DNA from: a phage
Length of the DNA: 64,000 nucleotides
Reading direction: 5' to 3' (one strand)
Sequence record: PZ402301.1
Shown piece after piece: positions 1,521 through 43,058 of this stretch. The first letter of the stretch is position 1, and each line of letters begins with the position of its first letter. The translations under genes and the position numbers were made by a program. The notes under the pieces were generated by a model that was given only the letters and a program-made list of their open reading frames with translations, searched no databases and was not told where the DNA came from.

Positions 1521-3203
1521 TTAAACCATTACAGTAAACCGACCAACTTTCTTCATTTGAAGATGCTGACCATATGCTTGTGGGTCATGGTCTCTATGCG
1601 AAATAACAAAAACGTTAGTATTTTTTAAACTATCTAAAATAGTTGAAATAGCTTTTACACCTTCAACATCAGTTGCTGAATCAAAAACTTCATCAAGAAT
1701 TAGTGTGTTTATTTTAACACCTGAAACTTTTTCAGCAATATCACGCCAAGTAAATAAAAGAGCAATATCAATTCGTGCTTTTTCACCTTGACTAAATGAA
1801 GCATAACTAAAATCTTCACGACCACGGGATTTAATTGTCTCATTAAATTCTTCATCTAATGTAAACACATAATCCGCTTCCATTATTTTAAGATAATGGT
1901 TAATCTGCTTATTAAATAATGGAATGTACTTTTTAATAATAGCACCTTTAATACCAGAATCTTTGAGCATATCAGTCAAAATTCCTCTGTGGTATTTTTC
2001 CATTACTAAATTAGTTTTTGTCTTAACAATTTTATCAAGTTCTTCTTGAAGCAGTGCTATTTCATCAGCATGGTCAATAAACTCAGATGATGCTTTTTCT
2101 ATAGCTGCTTTAACTTTTTTAGCTTTATCTACCGTCGTGATTAGAGATTGCTTTTTATTGCGAATATCATTTGCCAACGTCTGCTGGGTTTTAATATTAT
2201 CTCGGTATTCATCAACAAGAACTTTTAAATTATCACGATGTGTTGAAAGCTGTTCAAACGAATGCGTGCATTCAGAAACTTTATCTTTAATTTTAGAAAC
2301 AACTTTATCACCGGAACTTAATTGTGACAAACAGGTTGGACATAATCCACCTTCGTGATACATATTAATGACTTTATTATACGAGTCAATTTTTGATTTA
2401 ATCAAAACTGCTTCTTGACCGATTTTATTAAATGCATCAGTCGGGTCTTCATCCAAAACAATATTAACTAATCTTTCATTAGCTTCTTCTATTTCCGATT
2501 TTAACGTTCTAGCTTCTTTTGCCAAATCATCATACATATTCTGTAGACGAGTAAGGTTATCACCAGTTAATTTTTTCTGGCGTTCAACGTTATCATTATA
2601 TATTTTAATTTGCTGGATAATACTATCTTTTTTAACATCAAGCACTTGGTTTTGTGAATTTAATTCACGTATTAGTGCTTTATTAAGCTTATCCATTTCA
2701 GCTAATGTTCCTACCTCAAGCAGGTCTTCCACAAGCTTTCTTCGCGCAGGGGTCGACAAACCCATGAAAGGGGTATACCCTGCTGTACCAAGGACAACAA
2801 TTTGCTTGAAACTGGCATATGACATTCCGATAAGCTGTTCAAATTCTGCTTGGAAATCTTTACTGCTGGCAGATTCATTAAGACGTGTACCGTTAACGGT
2901 GATTTCGAAAACGTTTGGTTTTTGTCCTCTTTTGATATAGTACTTTTTCTCATCATATTCCATCCACAGTTCAACTAAAAGTTCTTTCTTATTTGTGCTG
3001 TTTATTAATTGACCTTTCTTTACATCACGAAATGGCTTGCCAAAAAGCCCAAATGTGATGGCTTCTAACATAGTAGACTTACCACCGCCATTTCGTCCAG
3101 TAATAAGAGTTTTTTGAACCTTATCTAATTGAATGTCAATAGGATTTCCACCTACTGACATTATATTTTGATACCTAACTCGGTTTAGTTTAAAATTCTT
3201 CAC
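1521..3203 (-). CDS. 46: recombination endonuclease subunit gp46 (Rad50/SbcC-like ATPase, 560 aa)
   Basis: 560-aa ORF; N-terminal Walker A GRNGGGKST, long coiled-coil middle, C-terminal LILDE Walker B; same length as T4 gp46. Confidence 0.9.
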   Translation of the reverse strand: MKNFKLNRVRYQNIMSVGGNPIDIQLDKVQKTLITGRNGGGKSTMLEAITFGLFGKPFRDVKKGQLINSTNKKELLVELWMEYDEKKYYIKRGQKPNVFEITVNGTRLNESASSKDFQAEFEQLIGMSYASFKQIVVLGTAGYTPFMGLSTPARRKLVEDLLEVGTLAEMDKLNKALIRELNSQNQVLDVKKDSIIQQIKIYNDNVERQKKLTGDNLTRLQNMYDDLAKEARTLKSEIEEANERLVNIVLDEDPTDAFNKIGQEAVLIKSKIDSYNKVINMYHEGGLCPTCLSQLSSGDKVVSKIKDKVSECTHSFEQLSTHRDNLKVLVDEYRDNIKTQQTLANDIRNKKQSLITTVDKAKKVKAAIEKASSEFIDHADEIALLQEELDKIVKTKTNLVMEKYHRGILTDMLKDSGIKGAIIKKYIPLFNKQINHYLKIMEADYVFTLDEEFNETIKSRGREDFSYASFSQGEKARIDIALLFTWRDIAEKVSGVKINTLILDEVFDSATDVEGVKAISTILDSLKNTNVFVISHRDHDPQAYGQHLQMKKVGRFTVMV

Positions 3204-3463
3204 AAAAGATTCCTTTTAATGTATCTTTTAGACCATTCTATCATATCATCATAATCTAAAAAGTATTCATCAAATTCAGCCATGCAAACAACACCTTGTG
3301 CTGCTTTTGATGTGATATAAATTATTCCAACATATCTAGAATCTTCTTCGGTGTATTCAATATTTGCTATGAATTCATCGTTAATGTCAAATGTCGAAAA
3401 CTTCACAGTATGCATCCTTAATACAAGATACAGCCATATCTTGTAATGATTTAGGTGTGTCAT
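3200..3463 (-). CDS. hypothetical protein (46.1-like); true start may be internal
   Basis: ORF in gene 46-47 interval; overlaps next ORF by 77 nt so start is uncertain. Confidence 0.4.
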   Translation of the reverse strand: MTHLNHYKIWLYLVLRMHTVKFSTFDINDEFIANIEYTEEDSRYVGIIYITSKAAQGVVCMAEFDEYFLDYDDMIEWSKRYIKRNLL

Positions 3464-31844: not shown

Positions 31845-32318
31845 TTATTTGAATGATTTGACGTACTGAATAGAACCTTTACTATTCACGAAAGCGATTT
31901 TACCATTTTTATTATACATGGTAGCAGTACGCTGATAGCCATAAGTTTGTTTACCAGATTGATAACCAACTAATGCGAAATTATCTTCACCCATTTTATT
32001 CTGTTTAGCGCGAATACGTTCATGACCGTGTGCCATAAGAACCTTAGCATCACCAGTTGAAATTGATCTACGAGTTTTTTCATCTTCAACTGTATTAACA
32101 AAGTCGTCAAATGAATCAAATTTAGCATGGGATTTATTATACAGTTTTCCATCTACTGCATAATTATATCCCTGTACATCCATCTCAACTTCTGTACCAT
32201 CATCCAATACAGCAGTGATTTTTTGACCTTTTTTAAATTTCAAAAGATCAGTAAAAGATTCAGCAATAATTTGAGAATTAATAGCTGCTTCAGTGATAAA
32301 TTCTTGATATGTTTTCAT
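31845..32318 (-). CDS. capsid-targeted internal protein (157 aa; IPII/IPIII-like)
   Basis: N-terminal capsid targeting sequence MKTYQEFITEA (T4 CTS consensus MKTYQEFIAEA with prohead protease site after Glu). Confidence 0.6.
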   Translation of the reverse strand: MKTYQEFITEAAINSQIIAESFTDLLKFKKGQKITAVLDDGTEVEMDVQGYNYAVDGKLYNKSHAKFDSFDDFVNTVEDEKTRRSISTGDAKVLMAHGHERIRAKQNKMGEDNFALVGYQSGKQTYGYQRTATMYNKNGKIAFVNSKGSIQYVKSFK

Positions 32319-32327
32319 ATGTTTCCT

Positions 32328-32744
32328 TTAAATGTAAATATTTTTGCCGTAATACTTGTACCAGTGTGGCTTCATTAAAATTTTTTCATCGAGTCGTTGT
32401 TGACTCAATTTAATAGCTGATTTGCATGGATTATAATCATTTTTCCATTCTGCTGGAATATCGCTGATGTCAGGAACTTCAGTATCTTTTATACTAAACC
32501 CACGTTTTAAGCATTCCATTATAATGTCTGATTGACGCTTTCGCAAAAATTCTAATTTGTCGTAAAAGAACGTAACATGACCAGAACCTAAAATAAACTC
32601 GGAAGATATTTTAAAATCTTTAACCCGCTTACCATTTGCCACGTGTTTACGAACTATACCAAAAACGCGTGGCAATTCACGGTATTCTGCGATTAAATGT
32701 TGATCAGCAAGTTCAGATACTAAAGTCAAATTAATACGAGTCAT
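32328..32744 (-). CDS. denV: endonuclease V (pyrimidine dimer DNA glycosylase DenV, 138 aa)
   Basis: [17 protein letters not shown]...YRELPRVFG... similar but not identical to T4 DenV as recalled; same length. Confidence 0.9.
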
Positions 32745-32803: not shown

Positions 32804-33334
<531 letters not shown>

Positions 33335-36500: not shown

Positions 36501-36833
36501 TTAATTTTTCCAACTTAACAACTTGTAGTGTCCTTCATTAATACGTGGTTTATCCCAAGAAATACTAATATATGATTCACTGTCAATAGAAGTCGCCGGG
36601 TTTTTCTCTACCGTAAGACCTTCACTTTCCAGCCATTCAATAGTATTTGCGCATAAATCGGAAGAACACCTCATCGGAAACCGGCAAGATTTTTCACCTT
36701 TAGCTGCAGTGTTATACATCTTTTCCAAAATACGCTTTTGCACGTTTTTAAAAATAGTTTCAGCAGATTCTTCAGATTTTTTATTCAGTTCAGTATAAAG
36801 ACTCATAACATTCTTCTCATTAATAGGGCTCAT
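36501..36833 (-). CDS. hypothetical protein (110 aa)
   Basis: ORF only. Confidence 0.45.
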   Translation of the reverse strand: MSPINEKNVMSLYTELNKKSEESAETIFKNVQKRILEKMYNTAAKGEKSCRFPMRCSSDLCANTIEWLESEGLTVEKNPATSIDSESYISISWDKPRINEGHYKLLSWKN

Positions 36834-36863
36834 AATATCTTAATCATGAGCCCATGTAAACAA

Positions 36864-37181
36864 TTATTTCATATTATTGAAATATTCTTCTGCAATTTCA
36901 TCATTATCATGGTAAACTTTAGAAGACAGTTTAACATAACCTTCTGCTGTGAACATGTTAATCACAACTTTTACAGTATACCACTGACCGTCTTCATTAC
37001 CCATTACTGCGTAAGTTTCAAACATCGGATGATCAGGACCGATAACTTTAATATCATTCACTGTACGACCGAAATCTTCTGAAACGCATTTCATAAAGAA
37101 GTTGAACAGTTCGCCGTAATTATCCATTTCATTCTCCAAGTTGTTTTTCTGTATCAGTAGTTGATAGTTGTATAGTACCAC
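36864..37181 (-). CDS. hypothetical protein (105 aa)
   Basis: ORF downstream of early promoter. Confidence 0.45.
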   Translation of the reverse strand: MVLYNYQLLIQKNNLENEMDNYGELFNFFMKCVSEDFGRTVNDIKVIGPDHPMFETYAVMGNEDGQWYTVKVVINMFTAEGYVKLSSKVYHDNDEIAEEYFNNMK

Positions 37182-37201
37182 AGTCCTTGTGGTATGTAAA
37201 C
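37171..37201 (-). promoter_or_regulatory. T4-type early promoter with conserved leader
   Basis: minus-sense AAAAATTTTTTCACAAAACAGTTTACATACCACAAGGACTGTGGTACTATACAACTATCAACTAC. Confidence 0.55.
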
Positions 37202-37338
37202 TGTTTTGTGAAAAAATTTTTAAAAAGTTTTAGGGAATTCTAGGGCAGGGATGGGCAATTAAAGGATAGGATAATATATTATAAAGGGTATAAACTAAAT
37301 GATGCCTAGAGAGGTCCAGAAAGGCCTAGATATCAAAA

Positions 37339-37362
37339 AGCCCCAACCTTTCGGTCGGGGCT
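37339..37362 (-). terminator. terminator hairpin AGCCCCGACC-GAAA-GGTTGGGGCT, copy A
   Basis: 10-bp stem with GAAA tetraloop immediately downstream of 37369..37842. Confidence 0.65.
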
Positions 37363-37368
37363 AAAATG

Positions 37369-37842
37369 TTATTTGATTTGTTTAGCAGACCAAATGCGGT
37401 CTTTAATAATTTTTTGGATGTCTTCAACATACTCAAGAGAGTGAGCATGTGGATTATCTTTGAAACTATAAGCACGAGCTAGTTTTTGGCCTTCAGTTTT
37501 GATTACTAAAAGCTCTTTAAGGATAGCTTCATATTTAGCGATAATTCCTTTAACAATATTTTTTTCTTGTGCAGCTTTAGGATCTGCTTTAGGAGCAGGT
37601 TTACCCGAAGCCTTTGCAAAAGCAGCACCAGTAGCAACTAAACTTTTCCAGGCCATACTAACCGCATTTCCTGTAAATCCTTCTGCTTTCATGTCGCGAG
37701 CAAACTGGAATCGTGATTCGTCAGAAGCATCTTTATAGGAATATTTACCCGCTGCAATGGCTGCTTTTGCGACAGCTTGAATTTCGGTGCTAGATGCTTC
37801 ATTTAACACCGCTTCATTTAAAAATTGAGCATATGATTTCAT
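37369..37842 (-). CDS. capsid-targeted internal-protein-like protein (157 aa), Ala/Lys-rich
   Basis: N-terminus MKSYAQFLNEA resembles the T4 CTS with Glu at position 10; bracketed by identical terminator hairpins. Confidence 0.5.
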   Translation of the reverse strand: MKSYAQFLNEAVLNEASSTEIQAVAKAAIAAGKYSYKDASDESRFQFARDMKAEGFTGNAVSMAWKSLVATGAAFAKASGKPAPKADPKAAQEKNIVKGIIAKYEAILKELLVIKTEGQKLARAYSFKDNPHAHSLEYVEDIQKIIKDRIWSAKQIK

Positions 37843-37892
37843 CTTATTTCCTGTTTTAATTCGTGATTTATACTACTATATTTATACTAAAA

Positions 37893-37916
37893 AGCCCCAA
37901 CCTTTCGGTCGGGGCT
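37893..37916 (-). terminator. terminator hairpin, copy B (identical to 37339..37362)
   Basis: identical ~30-nt sequence AAAAAGCCCCAACCTTTCGGTCGGGGCTAA. Confidence 0.6.
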
Positions 37917-38228
37917 AAGCCTTGCGGCAACCTTGTCGGGGTTCCACCTGCTAAGGCAAGTGTTTGTACGAAACGCCGGGATTCGAACCCGGTTATTAAG
38001 CAGTTGACGCTACTCAATATTTTTTAAAAGGCCATATCTCGACCATATCCGAACGTTCCGTCAAAAACGCTACTCGGCTTACGGCAAAGATATTTCCTCG
38101 AATCGATAATTCTGTGCGCCGTTTCTGCTGTGATGTAAGGGGATATTAACAAATCGTAAAGATTTATTAAGACCAGTCCTTACGCAGGGAACATCAGTCC
38201 GACGACTTACCGGTAGCGACCCGGTTTC
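37917..38228 (-). ncRNA. candidate structured stable RNA region with tRNA-like T-arm (possible rnaC/rnaD-type species)
   Basis: about 310 nt without ORF next to tRNA cluster; minus-sense CCGGGTTCGAATCCCGG T-arm-like hairpin near 37974..37990; no complete tRNA cloverleaf found by eye. Confidence 0.25.
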
Positions 38229-38939: not shown

Positions 38940-39425
38940 TTATTTTATGTAATATTTATTTAAAAACTTTCTAGCTTGAGTATGGCTAACATTTATAGCG
39001 TTTGCATAATTTTTAATAAAACCTCGTTCATCCATATTAAAATTTTCTAATATTTTTAATCGTCTAGTTATCTCATCTTGACTTAAGGTACTTGCATTAT
39101 TTTTAGAAATTTTTTCTAAGGACTGCGCCGAGTGTTTTCGACCATTAAAATTAAAATTTTTAGATTTTGGAGGAAATCTAGCATTTAGTCTCGCATCTTT
39201 TGTATTTTGATTATTAGTTGCGCAATATATGTTATTTAATGAATATGGTCCTTTATCGCCGAAACGGCACATGCAATATTCATGACCCTTTCTTCCACGC
39301 TTATCATAATTTCCCGTTGATTTCCACCAATGCAGCCATTCATCAAAAGTTAAATTCCATTCAATGTTTCTACGTATAGCAGAATTCCGCTGAGAAATAT
39401 ATTTTGCATAATCTTCTTTCATCAC
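38940..39425 (-). CDS. putative HNH-type homing endonuclease (161 aa) inserted in tRNA cluster
   Basis: His/Asn-rich core GHEYCMCRFGDKGPYSLNNIYCATNNQN; C-terminal SHTQA helix motif shared with the neighbouring GIY-YIG enzyme. Confidence 0.45.
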   Translation of the reverse strand: MMKEDYAKYISQRNSAIRRNIEWNLTFDEWLHWWKSTGNYDKRGRKGHEYCMCRFGDKGPYSLNNIYCATNNQNTKDARLNARFPPKSKNFNFNGRKHSAQSLEKISKNNASTLSQDEITRRLKILENFNMDERGFIKNYANAINVSHTQARKFLNKYYIK

Positions 39426-39565: not shown

Positions 39566-40216
39566 TTATATACTGTTAATTTGATTTAGAATTCTTTTTG
39601 CTTGAGTATGACTTACTCCAATATGCTTAGCATATTTATATAATTCACCACGCTTAGAAAAATCATATAATTTAGAAATTTCTATTCTTCTTTTTCTTTC
39701 ATCCGCAGAAACTTTTGCTTCGTTTGCTTTTGCTATTTTACGTTTAGCTTCTTGAGAATGAGTTTTACCAGCAAAGCCATTCTTCATTAATCCATTTGAA
39801 GACCATCCTTTTAATTTTCCATTAGAATGAGCCTTTTTAACACCCAATGAAATTAATTCGCGTTGCTGATCTGTCATAGGATAATTATTTATATGGTCCC
39901 ATCCACCTTCACCGCCAAGTTTTAAATTATACACATCTGGTCTATTTAAAAACTCTTCTGTGACAATATTTTTCTCGGCTTCAAGCATAGATTCTTTATC
40001 ATCAAAATACTCTAATATTTCTTTAGAGAAATTTTCTATACCATACTTGTCTTGGGCTCTTTTTAATAATTTACCAGAACCCATATATCCATCATCTAAA
40101 TTTTCGGTAGAATGCACACCAATATAAATTTTATTATTAATTTTATTTGTTATTTTATAAAGATAAAAATGCATATCAGTCCCTAATAAAGAACTGAGCG
40201 TCTCACGACGAGTCAT
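39566..40216 (-). CDS. segB: GIY-YIG homing endonuclease (SegB-like, 216 aa) in tRNA cluster
   Basis: GIY-YIG motif FYLYKITNKINNKIYIGV near N-terminus; located between tRNA subclusters as T4 segB. Confidence 0.75.
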   Translation of the reverse strand: MTRRETLSSLLGTDMHFYLYKITNKINNKIYIGVHSTENLDDGYMGSGKLLKRAQDKYGIENFSKEILEYFDDKESMLEAEKNIVTEEFLNRPDVYNLKLGGEGGWDHINNYPMTDQQRELISLGVKKAHSNGKLKGWSSNGLMKNGFAGKTHSQEAKRKIAKANEAKVSADERKRRIEISKLYDFSKRGELYKYAKHIGVSHTQAKRILNQINSI

Positions 40217-41925: not shown

Positions 41926-41950
41926 TTTATTCTCCTCAGTAGTTGATAGG

Positions 41951-41983
41951 GTAATAGTATCACAACTAAAACCCTATGTAAAC
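41951..41983 (-). promoter_or_regulatory. T4-type early promoter
   Basis: minus-sense GTTTAC -35; palindrome ATAGGGT..ACCCTAT in spacer/leader. Confidence 0.45.
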
Positions 41984-42001
41984 AACTTTGTGAAATATTT
42001 A

Positions 42002-42289
42002 TTACAAAAGATTTTTAGCAATAATCTTGAGATGTGCCGCAGAAATGTGTTTAGCTTTAAACAACGCAGTTTCTTCAGCAGGAGAGATAACGATTGTAGC
42101 ACCATCCTTTTTAGCAGACCACCCATCACCTAGGTAAACAGTACCTTTGATTTCTTCGCCATCAACCAAACTAATCATTGGTTTACCTTCTCGTCCTTTA
42201 TTTGCTTTAATAACTTCAGAAGTAAGAGTAGCTTCAGTAATAGTAGAAACCGGGGTAGTTTTTGTAGTAAACTCTTTGAAAGTTTTCAT
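42002..42289 (-). CDS. ipI: internal protein I (IPI, 95 aa)
   Basis: MKTFKEFTTKTTPVSTITEATLTSEVIKANKGREGKPMISLVDGEEIKGTVYLGDGWSAKKDGATIV... matches T4 IPI as recalled. Confidence 0.85.
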   Translation of the reverse strand: MKTFKEFTTKTTPVSTITEATLTSEVIKANKGREGKPMISLVDGEEIKGTVYLGDGWSAKKDGATIVISPAEETALFKAKHISAAHLKIIAKNLL

Positions 42290-42318
42290 TTTATTTTCCT
42301 AATTAATTTTGATGAGGT

Positions 42319-42349
42319 AATAGTATCACTACCTCATCAGCGTGTAAAC
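42319..42349 (-). promoter_or_regulatory. T4-type early promoter upstream of ipI
   Basis: minus-sense AAAATAATTTCACAAAGTTGTTTACACGCTGATGAGGTAGTGATACTAT with palindrome GATGAGGTA..TACCTCATC. Confidence 0.5.
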
Positions 42350-42361
42350 AACTTTGTGAAA

Positions 42362-43058
<697 letters not shown>

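Follow-up and report, generated by a model that had tools for sequence, protein, structure and literature searches.

Does the single gene enclosed by two identical hairpins beyond the rnaC RNA of a T-even phage encode an internal protein that is injected with the phage DNA, and how do the hairpins relate to its presence at this site? The stretch of DNA that was analysed (64,000 nucleotides, hereafter the window) is that of a Tequatrovirus, with phage EPIMRB01 as its best DNA match (98.4%), and every gene in this part of it lies on the minus strand. The original prediction had described the gene as a hairpin-bracketed cassette, and both the gene and the cassette were confirmed, with the strand of the gene corrected to minus. 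Based on the findings below, we consider it probable that the locus is a self-contained late-gene cassette for an unnamed T-even internal (injected) protein. Its elements are as follows:

37889..37918 (stem 37893-37916), minus strand: upstream 30-nt hairpin, identified as an exact repeat, by its fold (dG -20.3 kcal/mol), by a terminator scan and by alignment with T4 and PST
37879..37886, minus strand: late-promoter consensus TATAAATA, 2 nt past the upstream hairpin's U-run, the ATG following after 36 nt
37847..37852, minus strand: Shine-Dalgarno-like AGGAAA, read directly from the sequence
37369..37842, minus strand: coding sequence of the candidate internal protein (157 aa), the sole ORF between the hairpins, matching phrog_2280 and with a homologue in 512 phage records
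37798..37842, minus strand: predicted capsid targeting sequence (codons 1-15), with two L-N-E/A motifs in its sequence, after Glu10 and Glu15
37335..37364 (stem 37339-37362), minus strand: downstream 30-nt hairpin, which closes the cassette, identified as an exact repeat, by its fold, by a terminator scan and by alignment with T4 and PST

The ORF starts with MKSYAQFLNEAVLNEASS and its product is identical to HY01_0126. Between alleles and genera the dN/dS of the gene amounts to 0.07-0.14, and as judged from these substitution patterns the ORF is therefore a functional gene under strong purifying selection. The 46 nt that separate the upstream hairpin from the ATG (37843-37888) contain both TATAAATA and AGGAAA, and the promoter scan called no sigma-70-like site in this gap on the strand of the gene. 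The late-promoter 8-mer occupies the same position in 8/8 other Tequatrovirus loci examined, despite variable surroundings, while the Mosigvirus locus carries AATAAATA in its place, and the record of Yersinia phage fPS-65 annotates the late consensus at the cassette as a 'predicted late promoter'. In the window as a whole there are 14 matches to TATAAATA against 11 expected, a single match thus not being significant genome-wide.

That an identical 30-nt sequence lies on both sides of the ORF, as originally proposed, was borne out: the exact 30-mer AAAAAGCCCCAACCTTTCGGTCGGGGCTAA occurs twice in the 64-kb window (37335-37364 and 37889-37918, at a spacing of 554 nt), and none of 100 shuffles of the window contained even one match to it. 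The outer ends of the two stems delimit the span 37339-37916 that had been given for the cassette. Read on the minus strand, each copy (TTAGCCCCGACCGAAAGGTTGGGGCTTTTT) consists of a G+C-rich stem of 10 bp, a GAAA loop and a U5 tail, and folds with a dG of approximately -20 kcal/mol (z-scores of -3.9 and -5.8); in view of this minus-strand fold, both hairpins are terminators in the polarity of the local genes. The terminator located after the rnaC stable RNA and the tRNA cluster is this upstream copy, whose sequence and position are those of the T4 rnaC (species 1 RNA) terminator. T4 and PST each have this terminator once, whereas the window has it twice, the additional copy closing a gene that was either inserted or retained. 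Alignment of the window with T4 and PST further revealed that the DNA past the downstream hairpin corresponds to the T4 DNA past its single hairpin.

The RNA upstream of the cassette is defined by one feature:

37966..38061, minus strand: tRNA-like part of an rnaC-type stable RNA, reported by ARAGORN as 'tRNA-???', with T4 rnaC at the matching place

ARAGORN assigned this 96-nt element a two-base anticodon, and its alignment with T4 covers the terminal ~50 nt only. Its designation as a tRNA gene was rejected in favour of the tRNA-like part of an rnaC-type RNA; an Rfam scan of the region returned tRNA only, with no model matching the rnaC-type RNA. Two minus-strand ORFs are inserted between the tRNA genes. 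One (39566-40216) encodes a SegB-type homing endonuclease (GIY-YIG/NUMOD3), and the other (38940-39425, 161 aa), for which no Pfam match was obtained, shares with it a C-terminal '...VSHTQA+K.LN' tail and could represent another such endonuclease or a degenerate one.

The original prediction had also proposed comparing the locus across T-even phages, and this comparison uncovered both empty and occupied sites, with junctions at the hairpins. The cassette site lies between e.8 and rnaC. In T4 and Yersinia phage PST the site is empty, with one hairpin after rnaC and identical flanks in the alignment, and the sequence past this single hairpin is that found past the second copy in the window, continuing as far as the e.8 start and its early promoter. 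What the window has here beyond T4 is precisely one late promoter-gene-hairpin unit. In G50, fPS-65 and two IMG/VR contigs the 157-aa unit is followed by a second unit encoding a 187-aa protein that begins with MKTYAEFLTEAA, whereas in FL12, G3F10 and RB14 the 187-aa unit is present alone and is joined directly to the rnaC hairpin. Across these four occupancy states, every junction falls at a hairpin or T-run. The 187-aa gene, with its MKTYAEFLTE/AA leader, was located in G50 (locus L001, 4169-4732, minus strand), in RB14 (L015, 6100-6663) and in loci L006, L007, L010, L011 and L012; its cassette possesses a late-like promoter, AATAAATA, and its own, different hairpin, GCCCTATC..GATAGGGC, and is absent from the 64-kb window.

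Both families are widespread. A tblastn search found the 157-aa family in 512 phage records and the 187-aa family, always 'hypothetical', in 165; of the T-even records, roughly two in three carry the 157-aa gene. When both cassettes were used as a query, 128 records in a sample spread over the 741 matching GenBank records covered at least 80% of it, while approximately 40% of the sampled rows carried one cassette and approximately 10% none (T4 and RB3 included). Occupancy was estimated from this 'spread' GenBank sample, the hairpin scan of IMG/VR having yielded 5 loci, too few for statistics. The 157-aa gene is missing from T4, PST and RB3, and in fPS-65 (L010, 2121-2459, minus strand) the orthologue is shortened to 112 aa, with both hairpins and the late promoter intact, and looks like a pseudogene in the making. 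Orthologues occupy the same site in Mosigvirus (Shf125875) and in Jiaodavirus (KpV477), where the N-terminal domain only is conserved. The e.8-rnaC site is old and, since the orthologues are syntenic in these two genera, the empty state of T4 is probably the result of loss by deletion rather than ancestral. No record contained a second copy of the 157-aa gene. Movement of the cassette between sites was rejected, as every located homologue (Tequatrovirus, Mosigvirus and Jiaodavirus) is syntenic. The notion of cassette exchange through repeated terminators consequently requires adjustment: the cassette is indeed bounded by the hairpins, but 'exchange' is better described as gain and loss at one fixed site.

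Recombination between the two 30-nt hairpins would remove the cassette precisely and yield the T4/PST arrangement, and insertion would follow from the same event in reverse. In the repeat comparison no shared element is longer than the 30-nt hairpin. Leader-coding DNA was considered as a recombination substrate and rejected, the ip genes being approximately 70% identical there with no long exact stretch. It might be argued that the two hairpins are independently maintained terminators whose identity reflects selection for termination and is unrelated to recombination or turnover. Both copies are well placed to terminate transcription, and while Tequatrovirus hairpin pairs are either identical or 1-2 nt apart, such drift between the copies is seen in L001, L005, L009 and L016. 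This explanation is nonetheless rather improbable, as the boundaries of presence and absence lie exactly at the hairpins in four states, and the hairpin GCCCTATC..GATAGGGC ends the neighbouring cassette equally well, so that the sequence is not dictated by function. Furthermore, the two flanking hairpins of the Mosigvirus phage Shf125875 (L013, 2460-3040) deviate in the same way in their stems (GCCCCTTCC...GGTTGGGGC, internal TT/TT mismatch) and differ in the loop (GAAA versus TTAT). The common stem variant suggests, at the level of sequence, gene conversion or copying between the two copies.

We next consider whether the product is an internal protein. Its leader, MKSYAQFLNE/A, retains Tyr4, Phe7, Leu8 and Glu10, followed by Ala, while T4 IPII and IPIII both begin with MKTYQEFIAEA. 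In IPIII, the N-terminal ten residues are sufficient for head incorporation, residues 4 and 7 mainly governing targeting and residues 8 and 10 processing in mutagenesis experiments, and gp21 cleaves after L/I-X-E (PMC9026906, a review of the work of L. W. Black). The likeness to the T4 capsid targeting sequence that had been pointed out is therefore well founded, all four defining residues being kept. Five residues past the first motif the protein contains a second one, Leu13-Asn14-Glu15/Ala; as the first motif is missing from some orthologues, it is Glu15 that is invariant in the family alignment. A loose leader pattern applied to the six-frame translation of the window matched at two places, namely the 157-aa ORF and the Ip4 gene at 31845-32318, and leaders of the same type start IPII, IPIII, Ip4, IpV, IpVI and the neighbouring 187-aa protein. 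The pattern F-x-E/D-F-L-x-E is kept in the most distant family members retrieved by exhaustive profile search, and survives in orthologues whose mature parts are at approximately 40% identity or less. In the AlphaFold2 model, residues 1-15 form a disordered extension apart from the folded domains.

Two other ip genes are present in the window. The Ip4 gene (31845-32318, minus strand, 157 aa) lies directly after denV, encodes a protein with the leader MKTYQEFITE/AA that matches Pfam DUF7412 (E 1e-95), and is named 'IpIV' in PST and 'Ip4' in RB14; between denV (32328-32744) and e (32804-33298) the window contains neither ipII nor ipIII, unlike T4. The gene for IPI, a GmrSD inhibitor, is found at 42002-42289 (minus strand; Pfam IPI_T4, E 7e-54), encodes a longer leader of 19 residues and has upstream of it an early promoter with an internal stem-loop.

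Virion data are available for Yersinia phage fD1 (HE956711), which has the same cassette and whose protein g140 is identical to the 157-aa protein at 154/157 positions (98%). In an LC-MS/MS study of ultracentrifuge-purified fD1 virions, g140 was classified as 'PPAP', particle-associated at the strict threshold and without a T4 homologue (PMC8309999, Table S3; data set publicly deposited as ProteomeXchange PXD026812). The particle-associated list of that study comprises 113-137 proteins, about half of the genome, and is thus of low specificity, with non-structural proteins such as DenV, NudE, lysozyme and thymidine kinase among its entries (PMC8309999). Since the list contains such enzymes, detection of g140 supports packaging of the 157-aa family and falls short of proof. 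As the peptide search was fully tryptic, it was blind to a processed N-terminus (PMC8309999), which would be invisible in these data. The predicted N-terminal peptide of an unprocessed 157-aa protein is SYAQFLNEAVLNEASSTEIQAVAK, or SYTQFLNEAVLNEASSTEIQAVAK in the fD1 version, and the semi-tryptic peptides predicted for a processed N-terminus are AVLNEASSTEIQAVAK and ASSTEIQAVAK.

An alternative would be that this is an ordinary cytoplasmic protein, made late and left out of the head, its leader being a relic of 5' gene ends spread by cassette recombination. It could be said in favour of this view that cleavage of the leader is predicted from a motif and that the fD1 virion proteome, in which the orthologue was found, also includes clearly non-structural enzymes. 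A relic would be expected to decay, however, whereas all four critical positions of the targeting sequence are kept and the leader is conserved where mature regions are at 40% identity or less; at the DNA level it shares only some 70% identity with the leaders of other ip genes, hence no recent copy, and in the model it extends, disordered, beyond the folded domains. We regard this alternative as very improbable. The leader residues, the persistence of the leader in diverged orthologues and the detection of the fD1 orthologue in virion preparations together uphold the proposal of head packaging, and the protein is very probably packed into the head and injected with the DNA, a reading in which we place high confidence.

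As to the mature protein, the composition (18% Ala and 13% Lys, pI 9.46) is basic, like that of the T4 internal proteins. BLASTP comparison of leaderless sequences, all against all in a ten-sequence database, gave no match below E 0.1, and no similarity was detected between the mature 157-aa protein and IPI, IPII, IPIII, Ip4, IpV, IpVI or the 187-aa neighbour, so that both composition and BLASTP agree with the earlier description of the protein as Ala/Lys-rich and unlike IPI and the other ip gene of the window. The AlphaFold2 model (mean pLDDT 73.5, pTM 0.45) consists of a three-helix N-domain, a low-confidence Pro/Ala/Lys linker and a long helical hairpin, and the protein can be divided into a leader (residues 1-10 or 1-15), a helical N-domain (~18-71), the linker (72-87) and a helical-hairpin C-domain (88-154); as modelled, the mature protein is all-helical and basic.

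The match to phrog_2280 (E 4e-60) places the protein in a PHROGs family of unknown function. Searches of Pfam returned sub-threshold noise only, a sequence profile search of the PDB gave no match, and Foldseek comparison of the model with the PDB gave nothing below E = 1; against BFVD two matches only were obtained, both copies of the same protein (99-100% identical). Weak matches to ferritin-like helical folds were dismissed as meaningless. A word-indexed search of 5.8 billion proteins returned 14 clusters and a profile search run exhaustively over 1.8 billion representatives 13 matches, all of them unnamed proteins of T4-like phages, the annotation of cluster members being 'hypothetical' or 'uncharacterized' throughout the records examined. 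The family is also modular. In Yersinia and Klebsiella T4-like phages (P0010, P0011 and P0017; L014 at ~2995-3231) the leader, the N-domain (..AGKYSYKD..AWKS..) and the linker are kept, and the C-terminal domain is swapped for an unrelated helical region of approximately 90 residues that ends in ..VGDVGRHYKKL. A chimeric ORF of 94 aa (P0014, from an assembled contig of 2.9 kb) combines a trna.3-like N-terminus with the C-terminal 32 residues of the 157-aa protein; it reflects recombination or else an error of assembly.

The question of function may be approached from the known internal proteins. Ip1, Ip2 and Ip3 are inhibitors of GmrSD type IV enzymes, each with a different enzyme as its target, and the same has been proposed for other Ips (PMC12373910). 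An anti-defence role for the 157-aa protein is put forward from this precedent, and by this analogy the role is about as probable as its absence, type IV restriction as the particular target being a less likely proposition. The strong conservation of the protein (dN/dS about 0.1) is unlike the pattern expected of an inhibitor engaged in an arms race, and would fit a structural or DNA-associated role as well. The protein could accordingly be a packaged internal protein that serves in charge neutralisation or in the organisation of the packed DNA, and is no defence inhibitor. Its basic, Ala- and Lys-rich nature (pI 9.46) would be in keeping with this, as would the finding that lysines of Ips touch DNA phosphates in the T4 head (PMC3012670), the strong purifying selection with a C-terminal half that is nearly invariant between genera, and the presence of the gene in roughly two thirds of T-even records. 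Against this, the gene is dispensable, with T4, PST, RB3 and others lacking it and the fPS-65 copy being truncated, and the three T4 Ips, which are also basic, proved to be specific GmrSD inhibitors (PMC12373910). A purely structural or DNA-associated role is in our estimation unlikely.

Taking the anti-defence reading of an injected protein as the preferred one, the following sequence of events may be envisaged. The first hairpin would end transcription of the tRNA/rnaC unit. Late in infection, RNA polymerase in its phage-modified form would start at TATAAATA, read the 157-codon gene and end at the second hairpin. By virtue of the stop at the first hairpin, its own late start and the stop at the second, the cassette would be transcriptionally insulated from its neighbours. 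The residues MKSYAQFLNE of the precursor would act as a capsid targeting sequence that directs it to the scaffolding core of the prohead. There the prohead protease gp21 would cleave after one or both of the Leu-Asn-Glu motifs, the one ending in Glu10 and the one ending in the conserved Glu15. The mature protein, basic, all-helical and of approximately 15.5 kDa, would stay in the head with the DNA and enter the cell with it, where it would most likely neutralise a host defence ahead of any phage gene expression. It is in this sense that we infer use of the late promoter, cleavage, injection and an anti-defence role for the 157-aa protein.

In relation to known systems, the protein resembles T4 IPII, IPIII and IPI in its leader (MKSYAQFLNE versus MKTYQEFIAE, with Tyr4, Phe7, Leu/Ile8 and Glu10 followed by Ala), in being small and basic, and in having a non-essential, polymorphic gene and a mature part unrelated to that of other Ips, a common leader with unrelated mature parts being the hallmark of these proteins (PMC12373910; PMC3012670). 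It differs in that its mature domain belongs to another family, phrog_2280, and in its extra L-N-E/A motif. While Ip1-3 each block one GmrSD enzyme, the 157-aa protein exhibits no homology or fold match to characterised inhibitors. Its location is also distinct: recent literature recognises two Ip loci (PMC12373910), in T4 ipI at 57B-trna.4 and ipII/ipIII at denV-e, whereas the 157-aa gene lies at e.8-rnaC. Residence at one of these two loci characterises the known examples and is not demanded by the mechanism.

Polymorphic ip genes that share only the leader are reportedly shuffled between T-even phages, according to the 1994 work of Repoila et al., which is known to us through papers that cite it. 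The genes of that series, Ip4-Ip13, appear from those accounts to be alike in being unrelated ORFs with only the leader in common that are swapped between close relatives; they differ in occupying the two classical loci and in being named Ips in curated records (PST, RB14 and Shf125875). The e.8-rnaC genes are 'hypothetical' in every record and cluster examined. The curated record of RB14 labels Ip4, Ip5 and ipI, while the gene at its e.8-rnaC site (the 187-aa cassette) is RB14ncORF136c, 'hypothetical', and the leader sequences of the 157- and 187-aa cassettes were not found in the supplements of Silas et al. 2025.

The closest parallel for the cassette itself is provided by PeSL cassettes, single genes with a terminator stem-loop and their own promoter that are exchanged or excised through them (PMC2839356, PMC4122927), in the latter case as mini-circles by recombination between the flanking promoter/stem-loop elements (PMC2839356). 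Both the PeSL cassettes (Arbiol et al. 2010, Comeau et al. 2014) and the 157-aa cassette represent an insulated single gene that is gained, lost or swapped by recombination at repeated elements, stems of the GGGG...CCCC type being typical and indel boundaries between relatives falling at the stem-loops. The PeSL promoter is early and sigma-70-like, in contrast to the late TATAAATA of the 157-aa cassette, and the PeSL repeat is a composite of about 50 nt, as compared with a bare 30-nt terminator. Moreover, the PeSL mini-circle has been seen in infected cells, while for the 157-aa cassette excision is predicted from sequence comparison. A late-promoter version is not described in the two PeSL papers, the term occurring 0 times in that of 2010 (PMC2839356).

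Elements of the PeSL type are also present beside the cassette:

37172..37200, minus strand: e.8 promoter of the early type, TTTACA-17-TACTAT, its spacer containing a stem-loop, PeSL-type, identified by the promoter scan and by repeat families D1 and D2

This promoter lies approximately 135 nt past the 157-aa cassette, so that classical PeSLs and a late cassette coexist within a few hundred bases. The intervening spacer (37201-37334, ~135 nt from the downstream hairpin to the e.8 promoter) is approximately 95% conserved among T4, PST, G50 and the window; it contains the short repeats CTAGGCC, CTCTAGGC and CCCTAGAATTCCCTA, and neither an ORF nor an Rfam match was found in it. A repeat of approximately 54 nt, which reads ...GTTTACA, a short stem-loop and TACTAT... 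on the minus strand and constitutes PeSL-type early promoter/stem-loop units, occurs at 36821-36874, 37161-37214, 41943-41996 and 42309-42362, upstream of e.7, e.8, trna.4 and ipI.

The 157-aa protein is thus probably an unannotated member of the Ip class at a new location, in a cassette that is a late-promoter analogue of PeSLs, and no new mechanism is involved. More tentatively, we propose that the e.8-rnaC junction may be a third T-even internal-protein hotspot, at which late-promoter/terminator cassettes are gained and lost via the hairpins, and that the 157-aa (~500 genomes) and 187-aa (~165) families may be new injected inhibitors of defences outside the range of Ip1-3, for example further GmrSD subtypes. 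Other Ips have been predicted to disarm restriction likewise, from searches that covered two loci (PMC12373910), and the 157- and 187-aa genes would indicate that the leader-based delivery system is also used at a third site. Both families are very common in therapeutic-type coliphages and absent from T4, which makes them candidate host-range determinants, and natural near-isogenic comparisons are offered by T4 and PST on the one hand and HY01, fD1, G50 and FL12 on the other. The cassette also extends the idea of promoter/stem-loop shuffling from early to late genes.
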